DNA of 64,000 nucleotides from Maricaulaceae bacterium (GTDB lineage Bacteria; Pseudomonadota; Alphaproteobacteria; Caulobacterales; Maricaulaceae). The notes under the pieces were generated by a model that worked only from the letters and a program-made list of their open reading frames with translations, had not been told where the DNA came from and searched no databases. The DNA is taken from contig CBCYMI010000028.1 in assembly GCA_965183855.1 (NCBI GenBank), forward strand, positions 7,701-71,700, written 5' to 3'. Positions within the stretch are counted from its first letter, which is position 1. Each line of letters begins with the position of its first letter. The translations under genes were made by a program, and so were the position numbers. This document shows positions 15,661 through 48,990 of the stretch, in pieces.

Positions 15661-15696
15661 TAAGACTTTTAAGTTTAATCTTGCTAATTAGCGTAC

Positions 15697-17206: not shown

Positions 17207-18005
17207 CGGGATAGAAATTGCAGGCAGAGATTAGAAATTGCAGACAGAGATTAGATGCCGCGGACAGAAATAGAGGCTGCGGGCAGAGATTAGATGCCGC
17301 GGACAGAAATAGAGGCTGCGGGCAGAGATTAGAGGCTGCAGACAGAGATTAGATGCCGCGGACAGAAATAGAGGCTGCGGGCGGAGATTAGAGGCCGCGG
17401 ACAGAAATAGAGGCTGCAGGCAGAGATTAGATGCCACGGACAGAAATAGAGGCTGCAGGCAGAGATTAGATGCCGCGGACAGAAATAGAGGCCGCGGGCA
17501 GAGATTAGATGCCGCGGACAGAAATAGAGGCTGCGGGCAGAGATTAGATGCCGCGGACAGAAATAGAGGCTGCAGGCAGAGATTAGATGCCGCGGACAGA
17601 AATAGAGGCTGCAGACAGAGATTAGATGCCGCGGATAGAAATAGAGGCTGCAGGCAGAGATTAGATGCCGCGGACAGAAATAGAGGCTGCAGGCAGAGAT
17701 TAGATGGCCGCGGACAGAAATAGAGGCTGCAGGCAGAGATTAGATGCCGCGGACAGAAATAGAGGCCGCGGGCAGAGATTAGATGCCGCGGACAAAAATA
17801 GAGGCCGCGGACAGAAATAGAGGCCGCGGGCAGAGATTAGATGCCGCGGACAGAAATAGAGGCTGCGGGCAGAGATTAGATGCCGCGGACAGAAATAGAG
17901 GCTGCAGGCAGAGATTAGATGCCGCGGACAGAAATAGAGGCTGCGGGCGGAGATTAGAGGCTACAGACAGAAATAGAGGCTGCGGGCATAAGCTTTAGAT
18001 TAGCA
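17207..18005. repeat. 39-bp tandem array (~20 units), each unit made of two ~19/20-bp half-repeats
   Basis: The unit agattagatgccgcggacagaaatagaggctgc(g/a)ggcag repeats head to tail. Its half-units, cagagattagatgccgcgga and cagaaatagaggctgcgggc, are related to each other. It is unrelated to the REP family. Confidence 0.95.
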
Positions 18006-27358: not shown

Positions 27359-29951
27359 TTAATGCTTCCAGCGAAGCTTGACATAATAAAACCCACCATT
27401 AAATCCAAAGGGAGAATAATTAGGGTAAACAGCTCCCGCAATTCCAGAATATTTATTTTTGTCAGGATAAACATCAAATAAATTATCTGCTCCAACAATA
27501 AAGCTAAACCCTTTGCCTAATTCTGCTTCCAGTTCAACATCAAGTGTTAATTTAGAACCTGGATTAATTTCCAGACTTTCATCATCTAAATGAAATTCAG
27601 TGAATTCATCAAAATAATTTAATCTTACCAATCCTCCATATCTGCCTTGGTGATGCGTAAAGGCAATATTTCCTCTCCATTTTGGCAGTCCCTTTTCTAA
27701 AAGAGCAATTCTCTGGGAAGTAATCGTTCCACTTGCCAAGGCTTCAGCCTTATTGGCGACTTCCGTATTATTATAATTTAAATGAAGTTGAAGCTTTGAA
27801 TCTCCTTCCCATAAGCTAAAGGGCTTAATTGCGACAAAATCAACGCCTTGCGTTTTTGTATCAATCGCATTGGTATAATAACGAATTGATGACAAGCTTT
27901 GCGCTCCTTCTATATTTTGTGCAGCCAATTGATCAATTAACTCCTTGGTCAGATTAATTGAGCTGGTCTGTGCAATTCTGTCATCAACTTTAATATGATA
28001 ATAATCCAATGTAAATTTAAACCCTGCATAATCAAGGCGCCTCCAATTGTAAAGCTTTTTGAGGTTTCAGGCTGTAATCGTTTTCCTCCAAAAAAGATTG
28101 CAACTGGACTTGTTGGTGGAATTGTACCTCGATTGGTTAATTTTCCATTATTAAATACTGTGCTTACATTCGATACGTTTGATTGTCCAGGCGTGGGTGC
28201 ATGAAATCCTGTTGAATAGGTTGATCTAAATGTCAAAAAATGAGTGGCTTTCCATAACCCTCCAAATTTATAATTGGTGGTATCTCCAAAATCATCAAAA
28301 TCTTCCCAACGCAACGCCGCGTTTAAAACAATATTATTTGTAATATCTGCTTCTAAATCCGTATACACAGCAATGTTTGATCGATCAAATTTCCCCGCAA
28401 TATCTGTACTAAATCCTGGAAATCCATTTGATCCGATTGAAAATCCTTGATCCAGTAAGGGACCTTTAGAAAAAGAAGCACTATCTCCTGCTATAATTTC
28501 AAACTCTTCATTTCTCCATTCAAATCCAAAAGCCACATTGACATCAGATGCAAATGCCTTAATAGGAATTGGATATGAAAAATCCGCGTTGAAATTCTTT
28601 TCTCTCTGAACATATCTTCCTGGATGAAAAGAAGTTGGACTATCCGGTCCAAGTGTGGCATTAACCGTATTAACAATCTTAAATTGAGCCTCATTTTGTC
28701 CCGCAGAAAGACTAATATCATATATTAAACCATTACCAATATCATATTTTCCTCTTATTCCCGCAACGCCTGCAAGATCAAAAATCTTTGCTCCAAAGCT
28801 TGGCGTAAACCCACCTGGAAATAATTCATTAAAGACAAAACAGTTCGGATCTTTAAAAACCTGATCCAATAAATCCTGTTCATTACTCGCTCCAATCACG
28901 ATCTCAGGACAGCTCTTTCCATCATTCGGGGTTAAATCACCTATAAGTCTCTTTGTACCATCAGAATTTGCAAAAACGCCTGAACGTGTATCTGGGTTAC
29001 GATAAAAAAGCCTCCAACAACCTCTCTTTGAGCATAATTCCCAAAGGCATAAACTTCCTTATCATTATCAAGCTCAATGCCAAGATTAGCAAATGCCTTA
29101 AAATCTCCTCTTATTTTAGGAGTTCCCCAAATCTGAGCAGGATTTGCAATATCCTCATTTCCTGCAATAAATAATGCTGAAGCATCATCTCTTTGAACAC
29201 TTCTGCTCGTTGGATCAACATTTAAAAGCTCAACCGTGAAATTCGCAAACCCATTCTCTGTTAAAGGCATGCCATAATTTGCAGAAAACTGATATAATCC
29301 ACCATCCGATTTATAGGTGCTGCCATATTTGGCTTCCAACGTTAATCCATCCGTTGAATCCTTTAAAATAAAATTCATCACCCCCGCAATCGCATCAGAA
29401 CCATATTGAGCAGAAGCCGCATCTCTTAATATATCGACTTGTTTTAAAGCCAAAGCAGGAATAACCGAAATATCAGGACCTTGAGCTCCATCTGAAACAC
29501 CATTTCCCAAAAAAGAAATCACCGAAGCACGATGACGTCGCTTGCCATTCCATAAAACCAATGTCTGGTCTGGAGATAGTCCTCTTAAATTTGCAGGTCT
29601 TACAAAGGTTGCCGCATCACTAATCGGCTGCGCATTAATATTATAAGAGGGAATAATTGTCCGTAACTGATTATTAAGATCACCACTGCCTTGTCGAACA
29701 AATTCCTCCCCACCAATAACATCTATTGGCGCAGGCGTATCTGAAACAGAACGCTCACTCCGCCTAGTTCCAATCGAGACAATCACATCTTCCTTGTCTT
29801 GAACCTTTTCTTGCGCCAACGCCCTAGAGCCAAACCCCGTACCATAAAAGACGGAAAGACTCGTTGTCGCTAATAAAGCCGTGAGGGTTAATAAAGATCC
29901 CGTAAAAGGGGAAGATGAAACCTTTTTAAAACTTTTATCTTTAGAGCTCAT
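27359..29951 (-). pseudogene. TonB-dependent receptor split into three ORFs by two 1-nt frameshifts
   Basis: The plug domain lies in 28941..29951 (..TPAPIDVIGGEEF.., ..ILRDAASAQYGSDAIAGVMNFILK..). The beta-barrel lies in 27949..28899 and 27359..28009. The frames rejoin at an A6 run (29004..29009, reading ..GGFFYRNPDTR.. if A7) and near 28037..28040 (..TIGGALDYAGFKFTLDYYHIK..). Confidence 0.8.
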
Positions 29952-30284
29952 GTCTGAATTCTCCCAAAATATCCAATCAAACTTGTAAAATTAAGTATAG
30001 CATACGTGATATTTTTATCAAAAAATAAAGAAAAAAGGGAAATAAAGAAAAATAAAGATACTGAAAGTAATATAATTATCACATAATATTTGATAATATC
30101 ATTAATTATACCTTGAATTATAGACGGTCTATTTTATAATTTAATTTATTTAAGTATAAAGAATTATATAGTTTAAATAGAATTTATTTTATATAGAATA
30201 ATAAATTCATTAAGAAAACTTATTAAGGTGAATTAAAAAAACAATCTTTTAATCAAAAAGCAAATTTTATATTTTATCTATTAA

Positions 30285-30585
30285 TTATTTTTTCTTTCTA
30301 AACCAGGTTTTATAGCTTTTGATTTCTTTTGTTATTCTTTTGTTATTCTTTTGTTATTCTTTTAGGATCTGAATAATCAAAAAATTTATTAAACTTTCCC
30401 TTAAGAATAATATCAAAAATTAAAAATAATAAAGGATATAAAATCAATGCTGAGATAATAACTACCTACCTATTTCCTTCCAAGCCAAATAATAAAATAT
30501 ACCCTACAGAATACACAACTGCCATATTAAAGCTATAGATAAGTGTATATTTATGGTCTTTTAGAAATTTCTTTAAATGCTTCAT
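30285..30585 (-). pseudogene. Decayed copy of the 95-aa immunity-like membrane protein
   Basis: Starts MKHLKKFLKDHKYTLIYSFNMAVVYSVGYILLFGLEGNR, then TAG (30466..30468) where intact copies have Trp (ENRW). The 3' part carries an 11-bp unit (ttgttattctt) three times in tandem. Confidence 0.75.
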
Positions 30586-30600
30586 TTCAAAAATAATACT

Positions 30601-30921
30601 TTATTTAATAAAGCCTCCTAATAAACTGGTTGTACCTGCAGCCGCAGCACCAGTTACACGCATTCCTACTGCGCCAAAACCACCTGCCATTAACCCTGCC
30701 GCAGTTCCAAGGACCGCTCCAGCAGCAACAACACCCCAATCAACGCCAGGCTTGTTGTCTGTTAATTGATTAATTAAAGCCGCTCCTGCGCCCAATGCGG
30801 TTCCAATTCCAACCATAGCAGCAAATAAAGGCAATATTCCACCTTCTACTTGATCAATCTCTATATCGGTTAATTCTCTGATGCCTGGGTTTGCAGGTAT
30901 AGTTAACGCTAAATCTGTCAT
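30601..30921 (-). CDS. Double-glycine-leader peptide precursor, core type A (78-aa Gly/Ala-rich core)
   Basis: The ATG at 30921 follows TAAGGAGAGAAAAG; the tracked ORF start at 30963 lies in the promoter. The 28-aa leader is MTDLALTIPANPGIRELTDIEIDQVEGG. The core begins ILPLFAAMVGIGTALGAGAAL... Confidence 0.8.
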   Translation of the reverse strand: MTDLALTIPANPGIRELTDIEIDQVEGGILPLFAAMVGIGTALGAGAALINQLTDNKPGVDWGVVAAGAVLGTAAGLMAGGFGAVGMRVTGAAAAGTTSLLGGFIK

Positions 30922-30935
30922 CTTTTCTCTCCTTA

Positions 30936-30963
30936 ATTCTAAACTAAAAAAATAGAGAGTCAA
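30936..30963 (-). promoter_or_regulatory. Sigma-70-like promoter of the leader-peptide gene (TTGACT-N16-TAGAAT)
   Basis: On the minus strand the -35 TTGACT is at 30963..30958 and the -10 TAGAAT at 30941..30936. It lies 15 nt upstream of the ATG and is conserved base for base in six gene copies. Confidence 0.5.
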
Positions 30964-31008
30964 TAAAATAAGGTAAAACTAGATGAAAACCGTATAAAAA
31001 TAGAGATC

Positions 31009-31027
31009 ATTAACTCATAGCGTTAAT
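31009..31027. promoter_or_regulatory. Inverted repeat ATTAAC-N7-GTTAAT upstream of the peptide promoter (candidate operator)
   Basis: Perfect 6-bp arms about 45 nt upstream of the -35. The same site recurs upstream of the genes ending at 42798, 44416, 47623 and 57796, with a variant at 53923, and in the tandem duplicate modules. Confidence 0.4.
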
Positions 31028-31079
31028 ATAGTCTATAAATAGAGTGTATAAACCTTTATTATAGCTCTTCTTAAAATAC

Positions 31080-31270
31080 TTTGTGTATAGAATAAGCAGT
31101 TAGGTTTAATCTGGGTAATTAAAGAGCCTTAAGAAAATCCAGTCCGAGACTGGCGACCGCGCGCGCGGTCGCGTGGCTTTATTTGGAACGCTTAGCGTAT
31201 AAGAATAAACTCTTAAGCTTAATCCTGGTACTTGTAGAGCCTAAATAAAGTCAGCCCTTTGGCTGTTATG
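31080..31270. repeat. Two REP units ending in a cap hairpin
   Basis: Hairpins ccagtccgagactgg and cgcgcgcggtcgcgtg, then aaagtcagccctttggctg 7 nt before the clpA stop. Confidence 0.85.
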
Positions 31271-39244: not shown

Positions 39245-39682
39245 ATGATTATCATGGATTCTCAGAACCGTTCAGGAATTTCAGAAGAATTTCTTCCTGA
39301 TTTTACGCCTTTATTAGATGTGATTTTTCTGCTTGTGATTTTTTTAATTCTCGTTGCAAATAGCATATCTTATTCAATATCGGTTTCTTTGCCAAAAATA
39401 GAGCACGCTTCTCCTTATTTAGAATCTTCACCAGATCAGGAAATTGTCATTACACTCTTTACCAAAGGTCAAGGCTTTAAACTTGACGATCATTTTTATC
39501 AAACAGAAAAAGCATTTAAAACTGCTTTATTATTTCGCTTATCTCAACGCTCAAATCGTCAAATTATCATGATTTGTGATCATTCTGTTAAAATAGAAGA
39601 TTTTTTAAACCTGATTTCTTTTTTACAACAACAAAAAATTACTGCCTCAGAAATTTTAGTAGAAAAACAGCCAAAGGGCTGA
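39245..39682 (+). CDS. exbD: ExbD/TolR-family protein; last codons from a REP cap hairpin
   Basis: N-terminal ..FTPLLDVIFLLVIFLIL.. TM plus a periplasmic domain. The C-terminal ..QPKG* is encoded by cagccaaagggctga. Confidence 0.7.
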   Translation: MIIMDSQNRSGISEEFLPDFTPLLDVIFLLVIFLILVANSISYSISVSLPKIEHASPYLESSPDQEIVITLFTKGQGFKLDDHFYQTEKAFKTALLFRLSQRSNRQIIMICDHSVKIEDFLNLISFLQQQKITASEILVEKQPKG

Positions 39683-41023
39683 CTTCTTAAGGCGCACTCA
39701 ACAGAAATCTTAAGCTCTTAAGCTTAATCTGGGATCTTAAAGAGCCTTAAGAAAATCCAGTCCGAGACTGGCGACCGAGCGCGCATTCGTGTGACTTTTT
39801 TTGGAACACTTAGCGTATAAGAAAAAGCGCAGAGCTTAATGCTTGGTAATTAGAGAGCCTTAAGAAAATCCAGTCCGAGACTGGCGACCGCGCGCGCGGT
39901 CGTGTGACTTTTTTTGGAACACTTAGCGTATAAGAAAAAGCGCAAAGCTTAACGCTTGGTAATTAGAGAGCCTTAAGAAAATCCAGTCCGAGACTGGCGA
40001 CCGAGCGCGCGATCGTGTGACTTTTTTTGGAACGCTTAGCGTATAAGAAAAAGCGCAAAGCTTAACGCTTGGTAATTAGAGAGCCAAACACACATTCGTG
40101 TGACTTTTTTTGGAACACTTAGCGTATAAGAAAAAGCGCAAAGCTTAACGCTTGGTAATTAGAGAGCCAAACACACATTCGTGTGACTTTTTTTGGAACA
40201 CTTAGCGTATAAGAAAAAGCGCAAAGCTTAACGCTTGGTAATTAGAGAGCCAAACACACATTCGTGTGACTTTTTTTGGAACACTTAGCGTATAAGAAAA
40301 AGCGCAAAGCTTAATGCTTAGTAATTAGAGAGCCAAACACACATTCGTGTGACTTTTTTTGGAACACTTAGCGTATAAGAAAAAGCGCAGAGCTTAACGC
40401 TTGGTAATTAGAGAGCCTTAAGAAAATCCAGTCCGAGACTGGCGACCGAGCGCGCATTCGTGTGACTTTTTTTGGAACACTTAGCGTATAAGAAAAAGCG
40501 CAAAGCTTAACGCTTGGTAATTAGAGAGCCAAACACACATTCGTGTGACTTTTTTTGGAACACTTAGCGTATAAGAAAAAGCGCAAAGCTTAATGCTTAG
40601 TAATTAGAGAGCCAAACACACATTCGTGTGACTTTTTTTGGAACACTTAGCGTATAAGAAAAAGCGCAGAGCTTAATGCTTGGTAATTAGAGAGCCAAAC
40701 ACACATTCGTGTGACTTTTTTTGGAACACTTAGCGTATAAGAAAAAGCGCAAAGCTTAACGCTTAGTAATTAGAGAGCCAAACACACATTCGTGTGACTT
40801 TTTTTGGAACACTTAGCGTATAAGAAAAAGCGCAGAGCTTAACGCTTGGTAATTAGAGAGCCTTAAGAAAATCCAGTCCGAGACTGGCGACCGAGCGCGC
40901 ATTCGTGTGACTTTTTTTGGAACACTTAGCGTATAAGAAAAAGCGCAAAGCTTAATGCTTGGTAATTAGAGAGCCTTAAGAAAACCAATCCTTCGTCTGC
41001 ACACCTTTGTGTGCCTTTTGGCT
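39669..41023. repeat. Long tandem REP array with 83-bp short units and ~115-bp long units (about 14 units)
   Basis: The short unit is caaacacacattcgtgtgactttttttggaacacttagcgtataagaaaaagcgca(a/g)agcttaa(c/t)gctt(g/a)gtaattagagagc (83 bp, e.g. 40085 to 40168). Long units add ttaagaaaatccagtccgagactggcgaccgagcgcgc. Confidence 0.95.
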
Positions 41024-41061
41024 AAAAATGATGGAAAGCATAACCTTTGAAATAACTATAA

Positions 41062-41098
41062 AAGAAAAAAAGGAATGGGAGTTTATTCCTTTTTTTCC
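41062..41098 (-). terminator. Intrinsic terminator after the immunity-like gene
   Basis: Stem aaggaat (41070..41076) pairs with attcctt (41085..41091) between A and T runs, directly downstream of the 41102 stop on the minus strand. Confidence 0.55.
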
Positions 41099-41101
41099 AG
41101 A

Positions 41102-41389
41102 TTATTTTTTCTTTCTAAACCAGGTTTTATAGCTTTTGAGCTCTTTTACTATTCTTTTTCTCTTTCTTTTAGGATCTGAATAATCAAGAAATTCATTAAG
41201 CTTTCCTTTAAGAATAATATCAAAAATTAAAAATGATAAAGGATAACCAATAAAAATAAAAGTAACAACTTCCCACCTATTTTCTCCCAGACCAAAAAAA
41301 ATATATCCTACATAATACACAACTGCCATAATAAAGCTACAGATTAGTGTATATTTATGGTTTTTTAGAAATTTCTTTAAATGCTTCAT
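41102..41389 (-). CDS. Immunity-like two-TM membrane protein (95 aa) paired with the type A peptide
   Basis: Starts 15 nt after the type A stop. Two hydrophobic helices and a K/R-rich tail (..KRKRKRIVKELKSYKTWFRKKK). The same gene follows three other type A copies. Confidence 0.6.
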   Translation of the reverse strand: MKHLKKFLKNHKYTLICSFIMAVVYYVGYIFFGLGENRWEVVTFIFIGYPLSFLIFDIILKGKLNEFLDYSDPKRKRKRIVKELKSYKTWFRKKK

Positions 41390-41404
41390 TTCAAAAATAA
41401 TACT

Positions 41405-41725
41405 TTATTTAATAAAGCCTCCTAATAAACTGGTTGTACCTGCAGCCGCAGCACCAGTTACACGCATTCCTACTGCGCCAAAACCACCTGCCATTAACCC
41501 TGCCGCAGTTCCAAGGACCGCTCCAGCAGCAACAACACCCCAATCAACGCCAGGCTTGTTGTCTGTTAATTGATTAATTAAAGCCGCTCCTGCGCCCAAT
41601 GCGGTTCCAATTCCAACCATAGCAGCAAATAAAGGCAATATTCCACCTTCTACCTGATCAATCTCTATATCGGTTAATTCTCTGATGCCTGGGTTTGCAG
41701 GTATAGTTAACGCTAAATCTATCAT
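41405..41725 (-). CDS. Double-glycine-leader peptide precursor, core type A
   Basis: The ATG at 41725 sits behind AAGGAGAGAAAAG. The leader is MIDLALTIPANPGIRELTDIEIDQVEGG. The core is identical to the 30601 and 44096 copies. Confidence 0.8.
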   Translation of the reverse strand: MIDLALTIPANPGIRELTDIEIDQVEGGILPLFAAMVGIGTALGAGAALINQLTDNKPGVDWGVVAAGAVLGTAAGLMAGGFGAVGMRVTGAAAAGTTSLLGGFIK

Positions 41726-41740
41726 CTTTTCTCTCCTTAA

Positions 41741-41769
41741 ATTATACATCAAGTTAAAAATAGAATCAA
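41741..41769 (-). promoter_or_regulatory. Variant promoter TTGATT-N17-TATAAT
   Basis: On the minus strand the -35 is at 41769..41764 and the -10 at 41746..41741. It is created by a ~28-bp insertion relative to the standard upstream region. The same variant occurs at 46566..46594. Confidence 0.5.
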
Positions 41770-41847
41770 ATTTCAGCAAAAAAATAGAGAGTCAATAAAA
41801 CAAGGTAAAACTGGATGAAAATCACATAAAAAAGAATGTATCTAAGT

Positions 41848-42576
41848 TTATATTTTACATATAAATAGTTTTGAGTTTTTTTCTAATTGAGATACATCAA
41901 ACTTTTGATCCATAATTTGATGGAAAGATAATTTCTCTGACTCCATTAAATATTTAATCAGCATACGGAATTTAAAATATTTATAAGATAGAGACTGATT
42001 TATTTTACCAGAACAAAAAAGTTCTTTTCCAAAAACTTCATCAAAAGAGCTTTCATTTGCAATATAATCTGCATAACCTTCACGTTTCCAGACAGGCATA
42101 AAACGATACTTAAAAAATCCTATTTCTTTTTCTGTCAAAACATGAACCATTTCATGAGCTAAAACACTATTTAAAGAACGAGTATTAAACAGTTTCCCAT
42201 TTCTATAAACCTTGTTTTTAGATACATTCGAGCGAGTTACAATTATTCTTTGAAATATAGGAAAACTAACTGCAAAAGACCTATATGATTTCATAACTAG
42301 AGAAGCATATTCTCCATATCCAGAGGTTAAATAAACAGAAAAATAATATTTCCTATCTTGTTCTTTTTGAAAAAGTTCTGAAGCTTCAACTAAATTTATG
42401 CTATGTATTGCCAATCGTTCAAGATTTTTTTTTGAAACCATCTTATGATGATAAAAATCTATTCCAGAAAAACTTGTTTTAGAATAAGAAAGAATAGGCC
42501 AAAAATACCAATAAGCGAGATAACTGACAATCGCGATTACAAATCCATATGAAAAATATTTCTTGATCACCAGCAT
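41848..42576 (-). CDS. Membrane-anchored HExxH protein (peptidase-MA-like)
   Basis: N-terminal TM (FSYGFVIAIVSYLAYWYFWPIL), the motif VLAHEMVHVL and a downstream WKREGYADY (resembling Peptidase_MA_2 HExxH...EG.A). It lies between type B and type A peptide genes. Its product is identical to that of 46673..47401. Confidence 0.6.
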   Translation of the reverse strand: MLVIKKYFSYGFVIAIVSYLAYWYFWPILSYSKTSFSGIDFYHHKMVSKKNLERLAIHSINLVEASELFQKEQDRKYYFSVYLTSGYGEYASLVMKSYRSFAVSFPIFQRIIVTRSNVSKNKVYRNGKLFNTRSLNSVLAHEMVHVLTEKEIGFFKYRFMPVWKREGYADYIANESSFDEVFGKELFCSGKINQSLSYKYFKFRMLIKYLMESEKLSFHQIMDQKFDVSQLEKNSKLFICKI

Positions 42577-42642
42577 CTCTCTTCTTTGGTATTTATTCCA
42601 GAATGAAAATATTCGACTGTTGATTGATATAATAATTTATAT

Positions 42643-42798
42643 TTAATAAGCATCTACAGGAGTCAGCGCGATTGCTATAATAGCTATAATAGCAATCGTT
42701 GTAACGACCGCAAGTCCACCTTCTACTTGATCAATTTCAAATGCTGTTAATTCTCTGATGCCTGGGTTTGCAGGTATAGTTAACGCTAAATCTGTCAT
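42643..42798 (-). CDS. Double-glycine-leader peptide precursor, core type B (23-aa hydrophobic core)
   Basis: The ATG at 42798 follows the RBS. The leader is MTDLALTIPANPGIRELTAFEIDQVEGG and the core is LAVVTTIAIIAIIAIALTPVDAY. Confidence 0.7.
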   Translation of the reverse strand: MTDLALTIPANPGIRELTAFEIDQVEGGLAVVTTIAIIAIIAIALTPVDAY

Positions 42799-42812
42799 CT
42801 TTTCTCTCCTTA

Positions 42813-42840
42813 ATTCTAAACTAAAAAAATAGAGAGTCAA
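42813..42840 (-). promoter_or_regulatory. TTGACT-N16-TAGAAT promoter copy
   Basis: Same sequence and same offset from the ATG as at 30936..30963. Confidence 0.5.
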
Positions 42841-43127
42841 TAAAATAAGGTAAAACTAGATGAAAACCGTATAAAAATAGAGATCATTAACTCATAGCGT
42901 TAATATAGTCTATAAATAGAGTATATAAATCTTTATTATAGACCTTCTTAAAACACTTTGTGTATAGAATAAGGCTCTTAAATCTAAACTTGCTAGTTAG
43001 AGAAGCTTAAGAAATCACGCGACCGCGTGTAAGGTAAAATTAGACGAAAACCGTATGGAAATAGAGATCATTAACTCATAGCGTTAATATAGTCTATAAA
43101 TAGAGTGTATAAACCTTTATTATAGCT
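42841..43127. repeat. Two tandem copies of the upstream module separated by a REP unit
   Basis: The module taaggtaaaa.tagá-like start (taaggtaaaactagatgaaaaccgtat..atagagatcattaactcatagcgttaatatagtctataaatagagt.tataaa.ctttattatag) occurs at ~42847 and ~43030. Confidence 0.85.
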
Positions 43128-43714
43128 CTTCTTAAAAGCACTTAGCATATAAAATAAGGTTCTTAAGTTTAATCTGGGTAATTAAAGAGTCTTAAGAAAA
43201 CCCAGTCCGAGACTGGCGAACGCACACACATTCGTGTGACTTTTTTTGGAACGCTTAGCGTATAAGAAAAAGCGCAAAGCTTAATGCTTAGTAATTAGAG
43301 AGCCAAACACACATTCGTGTGACTTTTTTTGGAACACTTAGCGTATAAGAAAAAGCGCAGAGCTTAACGCTTGGTAATTAGAGAGCCTTAAGAAAATCCA
43401 GTCCGAGACTGGCGACCGAGCGCGCATTCGTGTGACTTTTTTTGGAACACTTAGCGTATAAGAAAAAGCGCAAAGCTTAACGCTTGGTAATTAGAGAGCC
43501 AAACACACATTCGTGTGACTTTTTTTGGAACACTTAGCGTATAAGAAAAAGCGCAAAGCTTAATGCTTAGTAATTAGAGAGCCAAACACACATTCGTGTG
43601 ACTTTTTTTGGAACACTTAGCGTATAAGAAAAAGCGCAGAGCTTAATGCTTGGTAATTAGAGAGCCTTAAGAAAACCAATCCTTCGTCTGCACACCTTTG
43701 TGTGCCTTTTGGCT
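43128..43714. repeat. REP array (about six units of 83/115 bp)
   Basis: Same unit as the 39669..41023 array and the same terminal segment ...aaaaccaatccttcgtctgcacacctttgtgtgccttttggct. Confidence 0.9.
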
Positions 43715-43753
43715 AAAAATGATGGAAAGCATAACCTTTGAAATAACTATAAA

Positions 43754-43790
43754 AGAAAAAAAAGGAATGGGAGTTTATTCCTTTTTTCCA
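43754..43790 (-). terminator. Intrinsic terminator after the immunity-like gene
   Basis: The aaggaat/attcctt hairpin (43762..43768 / 43777..43783) between A and T runs. A copy of the 41062..41098 terminator. Confidence 0.55.
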
Positions 43791-43792
43791 GA

Positions 43793-44080
43793 TTATTTTT
43801 TCTTTCTAAACCAGGTTTTATAGCTTTTGAGCTCTTTTACTATTCTTTTTCTCTTTCTTTTAGGATCTGAATAATCAAGAAATTCATTAAGCTTTCCTTT
43901 AAGAATAATATCAAAAATTAAAAATACTAAAGGATAACCAATAAAAATAAAAGCAACAACTTCCCACCTATTTTCTCCCAGACCAAAAAAAATATATCCT
44001 ACATAATACACAACTGCCATAATAAAGCTACAGATTAGTGTATATTTATGGTTTTTTAGAAATTTCTTTAAATGCTTCAT
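43793..44080 (-). CDS. Immunity-like two-TM membrane protein (95 aa)
   Basis: Differs from the 41102 copy at two residues in the ORF track (T->A, S->V). Same position relative to the type A gene. Confidence 0.6.
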   Translation of the reverse strand: MKHLKKFLKNHKYTLICSFIMAVVYYVGYIFFGLGENRWEVVAFIFIGYPLVFLIFDIILKGKLNEFLDYSDPKRKRKRIVKELKSYKTWFRKKK

Positions 44081-44095
44081 TTCAAAAATAATACT

Positions 44096-44416
44096 TTATT
44101 TAATAAAGCCTCCTAATAAACTGGTTGTACCTGCAGCCGCAGCACCAGTTACACGCATTCCTACTGCGCCAAAACCACCTGCCATTAACCCTGCCGCAGT
44201 TCCAAGGACCGCTCCAGCAGCAACAACACCCCAATCAACGCCAGGCTTGTTGTCTGTTAATTGATTAATTAAAGCCGCTCCTGCGCCCAATGCGGTTCCA
44301 ATTCCAACCATAGCAGCAAATAAAGGCAATATTCCACCTTCTACTTGATCAATCTCTATATCGGTTAATTCTCTGATGCCTGGGTTTGCAGGTATAGTTA
44401 ACGCTAAATCTGTCAT
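44096..44416 (-). CDS. Double-glycine-leader peptide precursor, core type A
   Basis: Its product is identical to that of 30601..30921. The ATG at 44416 follows the RBS. Confidence 0.8.
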   Translation of the reverse strand: MTDLALTIPANPGIRELTDIEIDQVEGGILPLFAAMVGIGTALGAGAALINQLTDNKPGVDWGVVAAGAVLGTAAGLMAGGFGAVGMRVTGAAAAGTTSLLGGFIK

Positions 44417-44430
44417 CTTTTCTCTCCTTA

Positions 44431-44458
44431 ATTCTAAACTAAAAAAATAGAGAGTCAA
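44431..44458 (-). promoter_or_regulatory. TTGACT-N16-TAGAAT promoter copy
   Basis: attcta at 44431..44436 and agtcaa at 44453..44458 on the plus strand. Confidence 0.5.
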
Positions 44459-44860
44459 TAAAATAAGGTAAAACTAGATGAAAACCGTATAAAAATAGAG
44501 ATCATTAACTCATAGCGTTAATATAGTCTATAAATAGAGTGTATAAACCTTTATTATAGCTCTTCTTAAAATACTTTGTGTATAGAATAAGCAGTTAGGT
44601 TTAATCTGGGTAATTAAAGAGCCTTAAGAAAATCCAGTCCGAGACTGGCGACCGCGTGTAAGGTAAAATTAGACGAAAACCGTATAAAAATAGAGATCAT
44701 TAACTCATAGCGTTAATATAGTCTATAAATAGAGTATATAAACCTTTATTATAGACCTTCTTAAAACACTTTGTGTATAAAATAAGGTTCTTAAGTTTAA
44801 TCTGGGTAATTAAAGAGTCTAAATAAAGTCAGCCCTTCGGCTGTGGTCGCGTGGTCTTGA
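44459..44860. repeat. Two upstream-module copies interleaved with REP units, ending in a cap hairpin
   Basis: Modules at ~44465 and ~44655. The cap aaagtcagcccttcggctg lies at 44826..44845, just before the hydrolase stop. Confidence 0.85.
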
Positions 44861-46273
44861 TTAAAGTTTGGGTTCCTTCCAGTTGCCTTCCCTGATCTTA
44901 TTAAGAAAATCTTCTATCATCTGCATTGCTTGCCAGGAAGCATCTCCATTCGCCATAAGACACGCTTTATAAGAAACATATTGCTTTGGCTTTGCACAAC
45001 CATTGGAAAACCAACCCGTTCCTATAATATCATGTTCCGCATGCTTAAAAATCTTCATATAACGGGAAGGATATTCATCACAATTTGCCTGTTTACATAT
45101 TATTCTGGCACCTAATTCTGTATTTCCATATTCATCTTTACCAGAACCAAACACTAATAAAGGGCTTCGAATCTGATCCGAAGGCAGCAATACTTTCTTT
45201 AATGCTTCATCTGAGATATGCTTTAAAGCATATTCATAGGCTTGTCTTTGAGATTTATATAAATAATGAAAAGGAAAAAAACCTCCTTTCATTGAACTTA
45301 GATAAGGAAGCTCTTTTCCTTTTAACGCCCAGTTATATGCTGTAAATAAGCAAAAAGGTCCTTGACTTCCATCTGTAAAAACACCTGCGCCACTCATTAA
45401 AATCATGCCTGCAAGAGGATGTTGATTTTGAGATGCTGTTAAAACAGAAGCCTCTACACCTTTAGAAACACCAAAAAAAATAACTTCATCTAATTCATAC
45501 TTCTTAATAAACCAATCTACAGCATGAACTAAATTCTCTATCGGGATATGATCAAGACAACTCCCATCCTTACGGTATTTATACATAAAAACAGGAAACC
45601 CTCGTGCGGCAAGACGAAAAAGCATGGGTGCAGGAAAGGCATTACCAGAACCAGGAAAATAAATAATTCCTCTTTTCTTTCGAGCTTTGCGCTCTGTTTT
45701 AAAAACCCCGTTTTCTCTTTGCGTAATTAAAAATCCATGATAAGGCGTTTCTAAAAAAATGGTTTTAAAAAAATCACCATTATGAACCACTATCTTCTTA
45801 AAGAAAAGAAGCTGATCTTTTTGATCTGTAACAAAAATAAGATATGCATTCCTAATATGTTTCTTCAAATTCATGATTCTTGTTTGTTCAACCATTTCAA
45901 GAATATAATTTGGAACAGAACCCTGTTTTAATTTATATTGATTATAAAATAATCCAGCAGGATTAACCCCTTGATAAGAACCTGATAAAGGCGCTTGTTG
46001 GCTTAAATCAACTATTCCCTTATCTGGTTTAAAAACTGCGTTTGACACTCCAAGAGTACGCTTATACCTTCCAAAAGAACGCTTATATAATCCAAGAAAA
46101 ACCACTCTGATCGTAATCTGATCCGTCTTTAAACCTTCTATTCTAATGGGAATAGCCTGACCCATATAGATCTTTTCAGGAACTTCAAATTTAATATCAG
46201 CAAAAGCGGATATGCTAAATAAAGATAAAAAAACAAAACAATAGTTTTTAATAAATCTAATTAACATATCCAT
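44861..46273 (-). CDS. Secreted alpha/beta hydrolase (BAAT/acyl-CoA thioesterase-like C-terminal domain)
   Basis: Signal peptide (..FLSLFSISAFA), a nucleophile elbow GVSKG and a downstream ..DEYGN..H.. region. The fold assignment is from memory of BAAT_C/dienelactone-hydrolase-like proteins. It starts 44 nt downstream of the type C peptide gene. Confidence 0.6.
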   Translation of the reverse strand: MDMLIRFIKNYCFVFLSLFSISAFADIKFEVPEKIYMGQAIPIRIEGLKTDQITIRVVFLGLYKRSFGRYKRTLGVSNAVFKPDKGIVDLSQQAPLSGSYQGVNPAGLFYNQYKLKQGSVPNYILEMVEQTRIMNLKKHIRNAYLIFVTDQKDQLLFFKKIVVHNGDFFKTIFLETPYHGFLITQRENGVFKTERKARKKRGIIYFPGSGNAFPAPMLFRLAARGFPVFMYKYRKDGSCLDHIPIENLVHAVDWFIKKYELDEVIFFGVSKGVEASVLTASQNQHPLAGMILMSGAGVFTDGSQGPFCLFTAYNWALKGKELPYLSSMKGGFFPFHYLYKSQRQAYEYALKHISDEALKKVLLPSDQIRSPLLVFGSGKDEYGNTELGARIICKQANCDEYPSRYMKIFKHAEHDIIGTGWFSNGCAKPKQYVSYKACLMANGDASWQAMQMIEDFLNKIREGNWKEPKL

Positions 46274-46316
46274 TCTATCTAAAATTTAAAAATTAACGAA
46301 TCTAGTATAATAGTTT

Positions 46317-46550
46317 TTAATTCGTTACCTCTACTTCACCACCAGCTTCACATTCAGTGCCTGTTTTAGTACTGGTACATTTAGCTGTTGCTTTAAATTT
46401 CCACTTTGCTCCACAACCACTTAATAAACCACCAATAATCACAATACCTGCTATAATTGGCAATATTCCACCTTCTACCTGATCAATCTCTATATCGGTT
46501 AATTCTCTGATGCCTGGGTTTGCAGGTATAGTTAACGCTAAATCTGTCAT
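46317..46550 (-). CDS. Double-glycine-leader peptide precursor, core type C (49 aa, TM helix plus Cys/Lys/Thr-rich tail)
   Basis: Leader identical to the standard one. The core is ILPIIAGIVIIGGLLSGCGAKWKFKATAKCTSTKTGTECEAGGEVEVTN, with three Cys. Confidence 0.75.
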   Translation of the reverse strand: MTDLALTIPANPGIRELTDIEIDQVEGGILPIIAGIVIIGGLLSGCGAKWKFKATAKCTSTKTGTECEAGGEVEVTN

Positions 46551-46565
46551 CTTTTCTCTCCTTAA

Positions 46566-46594
46566 ATTATACATCAAGTTAAAAATAGAATCAA
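46566..46594 (-). promoter_or_regulatory. Variant promoter TTGATT-N17-TATAAT
   Basis: attata at 46566..46571 and aatcaa at 46589..46594 on the plus strand. Identical to 41741..41769. Confidence 0.5.
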
Positions 46595-46672
46595 ATTTCA
46601 GCAAAAAAATAGAGAGTCAATAAAACAAGGTAAAACTGGATGAAAATCACATAAAAAAGAATGTATCTAAGT

Positions 46673-47401
46673 TTATATTTTACATATAAATAGTTTTGAG
46701 TTTTTTTCTAATTGAGATACATCAAACTTTTGATCCATAATTTGATGGAAAGATAATTTCTCTGACTCCATTAAATATTTAATCAGCATACGGAATTTAA
46801 AATATTTATAAGATAGAGACTGATTTATTTTACCAGAACAAAAAAGTTCTTTTCCAAAAACTTCATCAAAAGAGCTTTCATTTGCAATATAATCTGCATA
46901 ACCTTCACGTTTCCAGACAGGCATAAAACGATACTTAAAAAATCCTATTTCTTTTTCTGTCAAAACATGAACCATTTCATGAGCTAAAACACTATTTAAA
47001 GAACGAGTATTAAACAGTTTCCCATTTCTATAAACCTTGTTTTTAGATACATTCGAGCGAGTTACAATTATTCTTTGAAATATAGGAAAACTAACTGCAA
47101 AAGACCTATATGATTTCATAACTAGAGAAGCATATTCTCCATATCCAGAGGTTAAATAAACAGAAAAATAATATTTCCTATCTTGTTCTTTTTGAAAAAG
47201 TTCTGAAGCTTCAACTAAATTTATGCTATGTATTGCCAATCGTTCAAGATTTTTTTTTGAAACCATCTTATGATGATAAAAATCTATTCCAGAAAAACTT
47301 GTTTTAGAATAAGAAAGAATAGGCCAAAAATACCAATAAGCGAGATAACTGACAATCGCGATTACAAATCCATATGAAAAATATTTCTTGATCACCAGCA
47401 T
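46673..47401 (-). CDS. Membrane-anchored HExxH protein (peptidase-MA-like), second copy
   Basis: The 242-aa product is identical to that of 41848..42576. Confidence 0.6.
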   Translation of the reverse strand: MLVIKKYFSYGFVIAIVSYLAYWYFWPILSYSKTSFSGIDFYHHKMVSKKNLERLAIHSINLVEASELFQKEQDRKYYFSVYLTSGYGEYASLVMKSYRSFAVSFPIFQRIIVTRSNVSKNKVYRNGKLFNTRSLNSVLAHEMVHVLTEKEIGFFKYRFMPVWKREGYADYIANESSFDEVFGKELFCSGKINQSLSYKYFKFRMLIKYLMESEKLSFHQIMDQKFDVSQLEKNSKLFICKI

Positions 47402-47467
47402 CTCTCTTCTTTGGTATTTATTCCAGAATGAAAATATTCGACTGTTGATTGATATAATAATTTATAT

Positions 47468-47623
47468 TTAATAAGCATCTACAGGAGTCAGCGCGATTGC
47501 TATAATAGCTATAATAGCAATCGTTGTAACGACCGCAAGTCCACCTTCTACCTGATCAATCTCTATATCGGTTAATTCTCTGATGCCTGGGTTTGCAGGT
47601 GTAGTTAACGCTAAATCTGTCAT
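47468..47623 (-). CDS. Double-glycine-leader peptide precursor, core type B (not in the supplied ORF track)
   Basis: Hand translation gives MTDLALTTPANPGIRELTDIEIDQVEGGLAVVTTIAIIAIIAIALTPVDAY*. The ATG is at 47623..47621 behind TAAGGAGATGAGAAG and the stop at 47470..47468. Confidence 0.7.
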   Translation of the reverse strand: MTDLALTTPANPGIRELTDIEIDQVEGGLAVVTTIAIIAIIAIALTPVDAY

Positions 47624-47638
47624 CTTCTCATCTCCTTA

Positions 47639-47666
47639 ATTCTAAACTAAAAAAATAGAGAGTCAA
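47639..47666 (-). promoter_or_regulatory. TTGACT-N16-TAGAAT promoter copy
   Basis: attcta at 47639..47644 and agtcaa at 47661..47666 on the plus strand. Confidence 0.5.
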
Positions 47667-48132
47667 TAAAATAAGGTAAAATTAGACGAAAACCGTATAA
47701 AGATAGAGATCATTAACTCATAGCGTTAATATAGTCTATAAATAGAGTATATAAATCTTTATTATAGACCTTCTTAAAAGCACTTTGTGTATAGAATAAG
47801 GCTCTTAAATCTAAACTTGCTAGTTAGAGAACCTTAAGAAATCACGCGACCGCGTGTAAGGTAAAACTAGACGAAAACCGTATGGAAATAGAGATTGTTA
47901 ACTCATAGCATTAATATAGTCTATAAATAGAGTGTATAAACCTTTATTATAGACCTTCTTAAAATACTTTGTGTATAGAATAAGGTTCTTAAGTTTAATC
48001 TGGGTAATTAAAGAGTCTTAAGAAAACCCAGTCCGAGACTGGCGACCGCGTGCGGCCAAAGGGCTGACTTCTTAAGGCGCACTCAACAGAAATCTTAAGC
48101 TCTTAAGTTTAATTCTGACACTTGGAGCGCCT
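47667..48132. repeat. Two upstream-module copies with REP units
   Basis: Modules at ~47672 and ~47860. The REP ends with gcggccaaagggctgacttcttaaggcgcactcaacag... Confidence 0.85.
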
Positions 48133-48239: not shown

Positions 48240-48476
48240 ATGGAAGTGGGTATATTCGAAGCAAAAACATATTTATCCTCCTTGTTGGAAAGAGTAAAAA
48301 AAGGAGAAAGCATTGTGATTAAAAAAAGAGGAAAAGCGATTGTATGTCTTGTTCCAATTCAGAAAATATACTCTTTTAATCTTGATCAAAAAAGGCAAGC
48401 CCTTTTTCACTCGCGTAAAACCATGAAACTAAATCATATGAAGTGGAAGGAATTACGTGATAAAGGTAGAAAATAA
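48240..48476 (+). CDS. Type II antitoxin (Phd/YefM-like)
   Basis: The N-terminus MEVGIFEAKTYLSSLLERVKKGESIVIKKRGKAIV.LVP is typical of Phd/YefM-type antitoxins. It is followed by a PIN-toxin remnant. Confidence 0.65.
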   Translation: MEVGIFEAKTYLSSLLERVKKGESIVIKKRGKAIVCLVPIQKIYSFNLDQKRQALFHSRKTMKLNHMKWKELRDKGRK

Positions 48477-48571
48477 AACCGTAAAAAATCTCTTTTTGGG
48501 GGCAACATATAAAAAGTCTTTTTATATATTAACATTCTCTTCAAATCATACAGATCGAAAGTAATAATGTT

Positions 48572-48990
48572 ATGACGGTTGAACAAAAACCAGTTATACT
48601 AGATTGCTCTATTAGCGTTGCCTGGTTTTTTGAAGATGAAGCGTGTTCTAAAACGGATTCTTTTTTAAAAAATATTCATTCTTATACGGTTATCATTCCA
48701 AATTTATGGCAATTGGAAATATCTTAATTCAGGCAGAAAAACATAATCAAATTACATTCGAACATGTCAGAATATGTCTAGATCTTATTAGAGATTTACC
48801 GACCCTTACAGATATTGAATCAAGTGATCGAGCTCTACGTGATATCTTTCAGCTCGCTCGTCATTTTAAATTAACCAGCTATGATGCCGTCTATCTTGAT
48901 CTTGCACTCAGAAAAAATGCACAAATGGCAACAAAAGATAAACAACTTATCAAGGCTGCCAAAGCAAATAAAATACCTCTTTTGTTCTAA
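48572..48990 (+). pseudogene. vapC: PIN-domain toxin (VapC-like), frameshifted
   Basis: 48572..48727 encodes MTVEQKPVILDCSISVAWFFEDE...LWQLEIS*. 48706..48990, in another frame, continues ..GNILIQAEKHNQIT...SYDAVYLDLA... The frames switch near 48712..48722. Confidence 0.6.

Follow-up and report, generated by a model that had tools for sequence, protein, structure and literature searches.

A 1,093-nt duplication joins the same promoter and leader to two different cores in a double-glycine-leader peptide family of a Maricaulaceae bacterium

In the blp locus of Streptococcus pneumoniae, recombination has given rise to chimeras that re-pair leaders and mature parts, examples being blpN/blpM/blpK and a gene family that has two leader types (PMC4860687). 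Localized or diversifying recombination has likewise been proposed for prochlorosin-type peptide families (bioRxiv 10.1101/2020.03.09.984088; PMC10783134), and in CdiA-CT/CdiI, Rhs-CT and MafB-CT a conserved 5' region provides the homology that places alternative toxin-plus-immunity modules behind one delivery region (PMC4436062). Here we describe a small-peptide family in which a near-perfect duplicated block leads into two different cores. The 64,000-nt stretch of DNA that we analyzed (the window) contains eight double-glycine-leader, class-II-bacteriocin-like peptide genes, with core A in four, core B in two, core C in one and core D in one, and the peptide units lie at three separate chromosomal sites, amid housekeeping genes. 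The features discussed below are as follows.

30601..30921, minus strand: peptide A0 precursor, a dispersed family member
41102..41389, minus strand: putative immunity protein of 95 aa with two TM segments, 3' of core A in copy 1; function from position only
41405..41725, minus strand: peptide A1 precursor, a 28-aa GG leader (41642..41725) and a 78-aa Gly/Ala-rich core A, the same as in A0 and A2
41634..42726, minus strand: copy 1 of the 1,093-nt block by alignment, comprising the last 12 nt of leader B1, core B, the HExxH gene, the variant promoter, the A1 leader and the first 8 nt (ILP) of the core
41741..41769, minus strand: variant promoter TTGATT-17-TATAAT, arising from a 28-nt insert, upstream of A1
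41848..42576, minus strand: HExxH protein copy 1, 242 aa, a predicted gluzincin-like metallopeptidase with an N-terminal helix
42643..42798, minus strand: peptide B1 precursor, a GG leader and a 23-aa hydrophobic core B
42727..43223, minus strand: upstream extension of copy 1, comprising the 5' part of leader B1, the U1 promoter and the distal upstream repeat; ~95%, family-level similarity only, to 47552..48049
43591..44431, minus strand: unit A2 (leader, core A, immunity gene and terminator region), 99.05% identical to 40900..41740
43793..44080, minus strand: A2 putative immunity gene, 95 aa
44096..44416, minus strand: peptide A2 precursor
44861..46273, minus strand: secreted alpha/beta-hydrolase-like protein of 470 aa, 3' of core C, with a BAAT N-terminal domain (PF04775, 33.7 bits)
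46317..46550, minus strand: peptide C precursor, a GG leader and a 49-aa core C, matching TIGR03949
46459..47551, minus strand: copy 3 of the 1,093-nt block by alignment, comprising the end of leader B2, core B, HExxH, the variant promoter, the C leader and the ILP codons
46566..46594: twin of the variant promoter, upstream of C
46673..47401, minus strand: HExxH protein copy 2, its product identical to copy 1
47468..47623, minus strand: peptide B2 precursor
53279..53587: immunity-like gene of 102 aa, after A3
53603..53923, minus strand: peptide A3 precursor, its core A with 3 nt differences
57530..57796, minus strand: peptide D precursor, with a Gly/Ala-rich 60-aa core D and the same handle until 16 nt before the GG end

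All eight peptide genes share a near-identical 184-nt handle made up of a sigma-70-like promoter, an AAGGAG ribosome-binding site and an 84-nt leader, with six copies at 96% or more over 168-184 nt and two present as 99 nt plus the variant promoter. When the DNA of the family is aligned, ~100 nt of upstream sequence and the 84-nt leader are conserved while the cores are unrelated, and because synonymous positions of the leader and the 100 non-coding nt ahead of it are identical as well, this argues for exchange of DNA over mere constraint on the protein. The leader follows the canonical GG pattern (V-4, I-7, E-8, L-12 and I-15), promoter hexamers are predicted where expected, and each of the eight copies looks complete and expressed, with its own predicted promoter, ribosome-binding site, start codon and leader. 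Peptide C scores above the TIGR03949 class IIb bacteriocin cut-off (23.8 versus 21.5 bits), peptides A, B and D score under curated HMM cut-offs, with D having a weak MccV match (E 0.019), and the NHLP leader model, which differs from Nif11, reaches 13.4 bits against a cut-off of 50.9. No relatives of the leader or cores were detected in 5.8 billion proteins or in scans of genome, metagenome and viral contigs, and these scans yielded no related genome with the same leader for comparison. We infer that the family is expressed and has bacteriocin and immunity functions; secretion through the GG leader is a prediction only, since the 64-kb window contains no C39-peptidase ABC exporter, and no PCAT exporter or HlyD partner was found in it either.

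Self-BLAST of the window gave one 1,593-nt match at 98.2% between 41634..43223 and 46459..48049. Base-by-base alignment places its near-perfect part at 41634..42726 and 46459..47551, in agreement with the limits of about 41640..42720 and 46465..47545 that a sequence-only reading had proposed for a ~1.1-kb duplication. Over these 1,093 nt there is one mismatch (41721 T/46546 C, Ile versus Thr at leader codon 2), which follows a perfect run of 1,005 nt (42726..41722 and 47551..46547) and is itself followed by 87 further matching bases down to 41634/46459. A duplicate of such length and identity lies far beyond chance. The block spans exactly one leader-to-leader period, from the end of leader B through core B, the 242-aa HExxH protein and the variant promoter to the next leader. 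As that reading had noted, the two 242-aa products are the same protein; it carries a conserved HExxH...EGYADY motif, matches the M9 collagenase peptidase domain weakly in fold, and has relatives numbering 924 representatives and no Pfam model. The locus of one remote homologue contains GG-leader peptides, an HlyD-like protein and a C39 peptidase fragment.

The two edges of the block both lie at leaders. The upstream edge (42726/47551) falls inside leader B, 12 nt ahead of the end of the GG codons, and beyond it ~95% homology extends to 43223/48049, with 27 differences in 497 nt. At the downstream edge both copies read GGTGGA ATATTGCC (G-G-I-L-P), after which copy 1 continues with TTT... into core A and copy 3 with AAT... 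into core C. Identity in the successive 50-column windows past this point is 0.28 and then 0.26, so that the sequences are unrelated there, as proposed, and the drop to ~27%, 8 bases beyond the Gly-Gly codons, is a step rather than a gradual decay. The genes described behind each core were also recovered: core A is followed by the 95-aa two-TM putative immunity protein (hydrophobic segments 13-35 and 40-62; no family match), and core C by the 470-aa hydrolase, which has a signal peptide, a hydrophobic N-terminus and a nearest relative at 23% identity. Small membrane proteins and a CPBP protease lie 3' of peptide D. The position of the break just after the leader was correctly read but adds little information, because any crossover within the family must resolve inside the shared handle and what shows as the break is just the point at which homology runs out. 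The end of homology varies with the core (16 nt short of where the GG codons end for D, right there for B and 8 nt further on for A and C) and there is therefore no fixed site; the drop that follows GG-ILP marks the limit of the shared homology and no specific cut site.

A second repeat found by self-BLAST (40900..41740 and 43591..44431, 99.05%) overlaps the first inside the leader, which makes copy 1 a chimera. Aligned against the rest of the family, copy 1 reads as a mosaic of perfect tracts from three parents, the third being unit A2. From upstream to downstream these are 177 nt (42922..42746) identical to the A0/A2 handle, 1,005 nt (42726..41722) identical to copy 3, and 390 nt (41653..41264) identical to the core and immunity gene of A2. 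All parent switches fall in leaders, within intervals of 12 nt and 20 nt at the leader 3' end (CAA/CAG marker). The upstream region of B1 is 95.1% identical to that of B2 in copy 3 and 96.2% identical to that of A3; copy 1 upstream of leader B is thus no closer to copy 3 than to A3, and the 100% block is not the core of a larger, decaying duplication, which speaks for a discrete event of recent date. At the leader B1 junction there is a private cluster of seven differences (42727..42745) that simple conversion among the copies present leaves unaccounted for. A0 and A2, 13.5 kb apart, have in common a 603-nt perfect tract (31161..30559) over handle and core A, beside which the immunity region is 18% different and a pseudogene in A0, and this tract provides independent evidence of likely conversion. 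The third partner, unit A2, and five other family members had been overlooked in the sequence-only reading.

We consider it probable that handle modules underwent ectopic homologous recombination or gene conversion and that this duplicated the block, inferring both the mechanism and its direction from one genome. The 184-nt modules would serve as dispersed direct repeats, and the B-HExxH-C operon would have donated a segment one leader-to-leader period long, made up of core B, the HExxH gene and variant promoter, and the following leader. An A-type unit would have received this copy inside its leader, likely by gap repair in which leader B paired with one broken end and leader C with the other. 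The outcome would be a new operon whose HExxH gene and variant promoter precede core A together with the putative immunity gene. The idea that the leader and 5' region act as a homology handle for swapping modules is upheld in that the junctions have no other sequence in common and the parents of copy 1 switch inside leaders. Adaptive swapping of one core for another is not supported, since every copy looks complete and expressed; what is seen is duplication or insertion and concerted evolution.

A different route to the same arrangement is tandem duplication of a whole ~4.8-kb unit (B-HExxH-C-hydrolase-A-imm-array) by unequal exchange between flanking 83/113-nt arrays, followed by a leader C-leader A deletion that drops C and the hydrolase from one copy, and by later conversions that erode identity upstream of leader B. 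The minus-strand order that this predicts is present (B2-H2-C-hyd-A2-imm-array-B1-H1-A1-imm-array), the flanking arrays agree with one another at 97-99%, and the leaders are direct repeats that could mediate the deletion. We nevertheless regard this history as unlikely: it requires at least three events and is less parsimonious than gap repair, and identity upstream of leader B should then be equally high, but copy 1 matches copy 3 there at only 95%, the proximal 177 nt being identical to the A0/A2 handles instead.

The two-copy state and the junction of the U2 leader to core A are read from one assembly, and an assembler could have jumped between identical leader repeats or duplicated the block in a genome that has one B-HExxH-C unit and simple A units. 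Both block edges lie in an eight-copy repeat, just where mis-joins arise, the interior is 100% identical across 1,005 nt, and published blp regions include perfect duplications attributed to faulty assembly (PMC4860687). Homopolymer-length changes among the differences between copies also suggest some sequencing noise, and an independent Logan contig from SRR30811054, identical at 100% to 47569..46536, backs the copy-3 version only. An artefact is improbable, however, given that each end of the block occurs in two versions within ~30 nt of unique sequence (leader B1 with its TAFEI cluster versus B2 beside core B, and the variant promoter with ATGATA versus ATGACA), so that at least both ends are present twice. 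Furthermore, the contig resolves 1.4-kb arrays of 83-nt units, which implies long reads, and every junction ORF is intact.

Transposition or replication slippage of a repeat element carrying the modules as cargo, bounded by an inverted GCCRAAGGGCTGA motif and tandem arrays, would account for the duplication in place of leader-based recombination. GCCRAAGGGCTGA occurs 11 times against 0.02 expected, array-plus-peptide blocks carry it in opposite orientations at their two ends (39670+/44841- and 52899+/58531-), and the units occupy three chromosomal sites between housekeeping genes; but the 1,093-nt block begins and ends inside leaders, away from these motifs and arrays, and the region showed no transposase or integrase, making this origin very improbable. 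Least credible of all is a dedicated diversification system with a Chi-like hot spot at the Gly-Gly-coding GGTGG that actively makes leader-core fusions, an idea with a counterpart in the localized recombination and chi sites considered for prochlorosins (bioRxiv 10.1101/2020.03.09.984088), for although both switch points of copy 1 map around GAAGGTGGA, to the final 12-20 nt of the leader (joint probability ~1% under uniform crossovers over the handle, computed from the switch intervals), marker density is low, the homology ends of D, B and A/C differ, no recombinase is nearby, and such clustering at the 3' edge is expected anyway because heteroduplex extension from anywhere in the handle halts where homology ends.

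Recombination between handles would make this locus a clean example, with precedent, of a bacteriocin gene family rearranged through identical promoter-plus-leader segments. The likeness to cassette exchange in polymorphic toxins that had been suggested holds in part, in that a conserved 5' region would provide the homology for recombination here too. Those toxins are, however, large multidomain proteins whose orphan modules have no promoter, start codon or trafficking domain and are expressed only once recombined, whereas the genes here are small and complete, and each of the eight copies carries its own promoter, ribosome-binding site, start codon and leader, so that none appears to be silent. 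With class II microcins and the TIGR03949 class IIb group (lactobin A/cerein 7B) the family shares a GG leader with canonical hydrophobic spacing, Gly/Ala-rich or hydrophobic cores and a small membrane protein directly downstream, while differing from them in the sub-threshold scores of peptides A, B and D and in a window without a PCAT exporter or HlyD partner. Prochlorosins (procA) and other multi-copy RiPP families similarly have many paralogous precursors per genome and highly conserved leader DNA, with conservation stopping abruptly at the GG motif before unrelated cores. Prochlorosins, however, carry a long leader of the Nif11 type and undergo modification by LanM (ProcM), in contrast to the 28-aa classical GG leader here with no modification enzyme, and core diversification in them is reported to proceed mainly through indels, whereas the exchanged unit here takes in the whole HExxH gene. 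The blp locus, with its class IIb-like pneumocins, also combines several small double-glycine-leader peptides that share a few leader types with small membrane immunity genes after each. It is Gram-positive, has its own BlpAB C39-ABC exporter and BlpRH/BlpC regulation where no exporter is present in our window, and exchanges sequence mostly between strains by transformation, whereas the evidence here is of intragenomic conversion, with identity running through the promoter, in units scattered over three chromosomal sites of a divergent alphaproteobacterium.

A six-frame scan together with the ORF lists identified eight genes with the leader MTDLALTIPANPGIRELTDIEIDQVEGG, which we name by their cores. 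All genes relevant to the duplication described here are on the minus strand, and coordinates of peptide genes run from stop codon to ATG.

Double-glycine-leader peptide genes and neighbouring tandem arrays
30601-30921, A0, core A (78 aa, Gly/Ala-rich)
41405-41725, A1, core A
42643-42798, B1, core B (23 aa, very hydrophobic)
44096-44416, A2, core A
46317-46550, C, core C (49 aa)
47468-47623, B2, core B
53603-53923, A3, core A
57530-57796, D, core D (60 aa, Gly/Ala-rich)
39583-41000, 83/113-nt tandem array
43028-43800, 83/113-nt tandem array
53007-53170, 83/113-nt tandem array
54307-55101, 83/113-nt tandem array
58170-58513, 83/113-nt tandem array

DNA alignment and a BLAST search with the A2 module delimit a 184-nt 'handle' consisting of ~100 nt of promoter/5' region and the 84-nt leader, of which six copies are at least 96% identical. 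A1 and C retain only its last 99 nt (ribosome-binding site and leader), with a 28-nt insert that gives them a different promoter. The predicted promoters, TTGACT-16-TAGAAT in the common type and TTGATT-17-TATAAT in the variant, both lie just 5' of AAGGAGAGAAAAG-ATG, and predicted promoter hexamers, AAGGAG, ATG and full leader are present in 8 of 8 copies. Leader DNA is identical at synonymous sites as well as in the non-coding 100 nt upstream, even though core sequences are unrelated. Selection for the leader peptide cannot by itself account for this, and homogenisation must be at work at the DNA level. Homology is lost 16 nt before the end of the Gly-Gly codons in D, at that end in B, and 8 nt past it in A and C, so that there is no fixed junction site. 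The units are distributed over three separate intergenic locations, each flanked by housekeeping genes, and lie within the 83/113-nt arrays. Relatives of the leader or the peptides were found on the source contig only, in searches covering 5.8 billion proteins, GTDB representative genomes, JGI metagenome contigs, viral contigs and plasmids. We also noted a promoter/upstream-repeat remnant at 15510-15714, 82-83% identical to the 5' half of the handle and to the upstream unit of the common promoter type, which precedes a 78-nt array, lacks any leader or peptide gene behind it and may be a decayed peptide unit.

When the 39-49 kb region was compared with itself, 41634..43223 matched 46459..48049 over 1,593 nt at 98.2%, a figure that base-by-base alignment found to be internally heterogeneous. 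A perfect run of 1,005 nt (42726..41722 = 47551..46547) is followed by a single mismatch at 41721/46546, which makes the second leader codon ATA (Ile) in one copy and ACA (Thr) in the other, and then by 87 more identical bases to 41634/46459. Both copies read GGTGGA-ATATTGCC (G-G-I-L-P) and continue as TTT... (core A) versus AAT... (core C), with identity dropping sharply to 26-28% in the 50-column windows that follow. On the upstream side of 42726/47551 the copies are only ~95% identical (27 differences in 497 nt). The sequence-only reading had described a ~1.1-kb block at essentially these coordinates with two identical 242-aa products, and both points are confirmed, the block by self-comparison and base-by-base alignment alike. 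Its sharp downstream break at the leader/core junction is equally real, being a step from 100% to ~27%; gradual decay of identity, named beforehand as the outcome that would tell against such a break, is rejected by the alignment. The abrupt end just after the leader thus stands, but its position is uninformative as a sign of a special site, because exchanges resolve only in shared sequence and heteroduplex extension ends with homology. Switches would cluster at the 3' edge of the leader simply because homology ends there.

The composition of the copy at 41634..42726 (copy 1) differs along its length when it is set against the copy at 46459..47551 (copy 3) and the other peptide units.

Segments of copy 1, listed 5' to 3' on the minus strand
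43223-42923 (-), distal upstream repeat; nearest to the A3 upstream region, 96.2% over 425 nt, versus 95.1% to B2
42922-42746 (-), 177 nt identical to the A0 and A2 handles; 5 promoter differences from B2
42745-42727 (-), leader B1 with a private cluster of 7 differences, TDIEI to TAFEI
42726-41722 (-), 1,005 nt identical to copy 3
41721 (-), private SNP
41720-41655 (-), common to all copies
41654 (-), G, shared with C, A3 and B2; A in A0, A2 and B1
41653-41264 (-), 390 nt identical to A2, covering the whole of core A and the immunity gene start

Judged by these alignments, copy 1 is a three-parent chimera, with parent switches in the final 12 nt of leader B and in the final 12 nt of leader A1 extended by 8 nt. 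The transferred block spans one leader-to-leader period (47540 - 46467 = 1,073 nt). The seven substitutions at 42727-42745 fall exactly between the A0/A2-type and copy-3-type tracts and occur nowhere else in the window; they may have been left by repair or may derive from a family member not seen here. Over 603 nt (31161-30559 = 44656-44054), A0 matches A2, 13.5 kb away, perfectly, in a tract spanning upstream region, leader and core A, next to which the immunity region is ~18% different with a stop codon in A0. This is further evidence of conversion, independent of the mosaic in copy 1.

The chimera is most economically explained if handles served as substrate for ectopic homologous recombination or gene conversion. 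At the exbD-proximal site, an A-type unit would have been broken in its leader and repaired from the B2-HExxH-C operon, leader B pairing with one of the broken ends and leader C with the other, and repair would then have copied in core B, the HExxH gene and the variant promoter. As an alternative, the whole ~4.8-kb unit may have been duplicated in tandem via the flanking arrays, followed by a deletion between leader C and leader A. This agrees with the gene order, but it calls for a larger number of events and leaves the A0/A2-type handle ahead of B1 unpredicted. Under either route the handle would be the recombination substrate, which to that extent supports the proposal of the sequence-only reading that leader and 5' region serve as a homology handle. 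No replacement of one core by another, silent cassette or selective benefit is demonstrated by the sequences.

We consider it improbable that the duplicated block is an assembly artefact, even though perfect duplications in the pneumococcal blp loci turned out to be just that and the published warning (PMC4860687) is pertinent here. Homopolymer-length differences between the copies also suggest some sequencing noise, and they explain an apparent inverted loop in the hairpin after the immunity gene (41072..41090), which we rejected as a product of global alignment across compensating length differences. Against an artefact, each end of the block exists in two versions near unique sequence (B1 versus B2 leader beside core B, and ATGATA versus ATGACA beside the variant promoter), the junction ORFs are all intact, and long near-identical tandem arrays are resolved in the contig, which points to long reads. 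An independent short-read assembly (Logan, SRR30811054) holds a 1,034-nt contig identical to 47569-46536 that ends inside leaders on both sides, as expected for a high-copy leader; it carries copy-3 variants only and is uninformative on copy number. Exact-protein look-ups returned no record for the copy-1-specific products (B1 and A1) or for the cluster representative (P0004).

The 242-aa product of the duplicated block (41848-42576 / 46673-47401) has an N-terminal helix and contains HEMVH, with WKxEGYADYIA conserved 20 residues further on; both are invariant in three homologues. Members of the MA clan (gluzincins) combine HExxH with a downstream Glu as third zinc ligand and a thermolysin-like fold. 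An AF2 model of modest quality (pLDDT 67) gave clostridial M9 collagenase peptidase domains as best PDB fold matches, which were weak (E 6e-3, TM 0.45), and nothing scored above threshold in Pfam, NCBIfam or PDB sequences, nor did a profile search of PDB sequences give anything meaningful. From its motifs and model, the protein is consistent with a gluzincin-type metallopeptidase. It belongs to an uncurated family with no Pfam model, which comprised 924 representative clusters at E<=1e-3 and 512 at <=1e-10 in an exhaustive HMM search. A remote homologue (46% identity) in the MAG GCA_027048175.1 is accompanied by an alpha/beta hydrolase, two GG/GA-leader peptides, an HlyD-like protein and a C39 peptidase fragment, and this neighbourhood ties the protein family independently to bacteriocin-type loci.

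Behind core A, starting 15 nt past it in A1, A2 and A3, is a 95-aa protein with two hydrophobic segments that is an immunity candidate by position. At 30250-30600, the immunity-like gene of A0, ~18% diverged from the other copies and with a stop codon inside, is a pseudogene. Despite this broken neighbour, A0 itself encodes an intact peptide and, within the 603-nt perfect tract, matches A1/A2 at 100%. The gene after core C encodes a 470-aa alpha/beta hydrolase whose N-terminus is hydrophobic and which has a BAAT N-terminal domain. For this protein we found essentially no relatives and no PDB sequence match; its resemblance to the hydrolase beside the remote HExxH homologue was not significant (E 0.21) and was dismissed. 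The region 3' of D (55103-57522) encodes a 126-aa membrane protein made by internal tandem duplication (168-nt period x2, 57153-57492), other small ORFs for membrane proteins and, at 55103-56038, a CPBP/Rce1-like intramembrane protease. The CPBP type of protease is frequently tied to bacteriocin immunity.

The window has a G+C content of 34.8% and contains alphaproteobacterial housekeeping genes (mipZ, clpSA, the trp operon, rodA, PBP2-mreCD and exbBD). Among GTDB representative genomes, the best matches of ClpA are only 58-64% identical and scattered over many alphaproteobacterial orders, indicating a divergent, poorly sampled lineage. A TonB-dependent receptor spread over three consecutive ORFs (27359-29951) and an anthranilate synthase component I over two (18285-19868) are either pseudogenes of a degrading genome or assembly frameshift errors. 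At 48240-48990, adjoining the B2 upstream region, a Phd/YefM-type antitoxin gene (78 aa) precedes a PIN-domain toxin gene that is apparently split by a frameshift (ORFs 48572-48727 and 48706-48990).

The 83-nt and 113-nt arrays are non-coding, stand beside every peptide unit and consist of units 97-99% identical, in which small GC hairpins precede T runs on both strands. Terminator-like sites number 25 at 40.8-48.3 kb, versus 4.1 expected. Rfam matched a tRNA alone in the window, leaving the arrays with no known RNA family, and one array dimer folded no better than shuffled sequences (z = -1.08). Further non-coding arrays at 1732-2298, 7774-8829, 14451-15457 and 17219-17962 (periods 91, 78, 78 and 39 nt), some of them ~75% identical to the 83-nt family, make the window unusually array-rich. 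The motif GCCRAAGGGCTGA occurs 11 times versus 0.02 expected, in both orientations and at the outer ends of arrays or peptide blocks, and resembles the terminal sequence of a MITE/REP-like repeat family. Its copies at 39670-39682 and 5608-5620 form the final codons (PKG) and stop of exbD and of ORF 5207-5620, respectively.

Sites of the repeat-end motif
5608, 6786, 15707, 27159, 31251, 37742, 39670, 44829, 48055, 52899 and 58519, 13-nt sites of GCCRAAGGGCTGA

That handles and 83/113-nt arrays together form a genome-wide platform, actively and repeatedly joining leaders to unrelated toxin/immunity and HExxH/hydrolase modules and maybe focused at the Gly-Gly-coding GGTGG, seems to us quite unlikely. 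If it were true, one cell lineage could rapidly make new bacteriocin operons, and the population would be structurally heterogeneous at its peptide loci.

Double-glycine leaders are defined as 15-30 residues ending in Gly-Gly, hydrophobic at -4, -7, -12 and -15 and acidic at -8. The leader MTDLALTIPANPGIRELTDIEIDQVEGG has V-4, I-7, E-8, L-12 and I-15, positions that are invariant in 7 of 8 copies, and the D leader has V-4, I-7, E-8, L-12 and I-15 with FVVGG. With the class IIb bacteriocin model TIGR03949 (lactobin A/cerein 7B family; cut-off 21.5 bits), peptide C passes at 23.8, peptides A (19.3) and B (17.7) score just under the cut-off, and peptide D gave no match, its Pfam matches to MccV (E 0.019) and Bacteriocin_IIc (E 0.62) being weak. 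Further marks of the class are a small membrane immunity protein encoded directly behind the toxin gene and a nearby dedicated C39-peptidase ABC exporter (PCAT), as a rule with an HlyD-type partner. No Peptidase_C39, ABC or HlyD domain was found by Pfam among ~38 larger ORFs of the 64-kb window, within which no C39-ABC exporter was found. On sequence grounds, the locus is probably best filed as a taxonomically isolated member of the double-glycine-leader class II bacteriocin/microcin-like group. This extends such families to a deeply divergent, low-GC alphaproteobacterium, and places an uncurated HExxH family (>900 representative clusters) at bacteriocin-type loci of two unrelated genomes. Provided that the assembly is correct, the locus also offers a nucleotide-resolution natural example of re-combination of small secreted toxin genes, in which identical promoter-plus-leader segments would act as portable homology that moves unrelated cores, immunity genes and accessory enzymes between operons of one genome.

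By analogy, the present locus works like three known systems. In the blp loci, leaders and mature peptides are re-associated by recombination (PMC4860687), and localized recombination has been suggested for the prochlorosin procA genes, with chi sites among the ideas put forward (bioRxiv 10.1101/2020.03.09.984088). In the procA families, likewise, leader DNA is conserved, cores are unrelated and the GG motif marks the boundary. However, Nif11/NHLP RiPPs such as prochlorosins have a long leader and a modification enzyme (LanM or cyclodehydratase), neither of which is present here: the NHLP leader model TIGR03793 scored 13.4 bits against a cut-off of 50.9, the NCBIfam scan gave no Nif11 match, and the window has no LanM-like ORF. 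Polymorphic toxin loci recombine with orphan toxin/immunity modules through a conserved region (PMC4436062). The likeness to their cassette exchange drawn by the sequence-only reading holds for the way the locus appears to work, but not for class membership. The CDI/Rhs/Maf toxins are large secreted multidomain proteins whose N-terminal region serves trafficking and whose C-terminal toxin domain varies, whereas the precursors here measure 51-106 aa with a 28-aa leader; and their orphans are promoter-less, 5'-truncated and share short homology only, whereas all eight copies here are complete. Since blp loci, prochlorosins and polymorphic toxins have already established the principle, what is gained is a clean case of it rather than a new concept.
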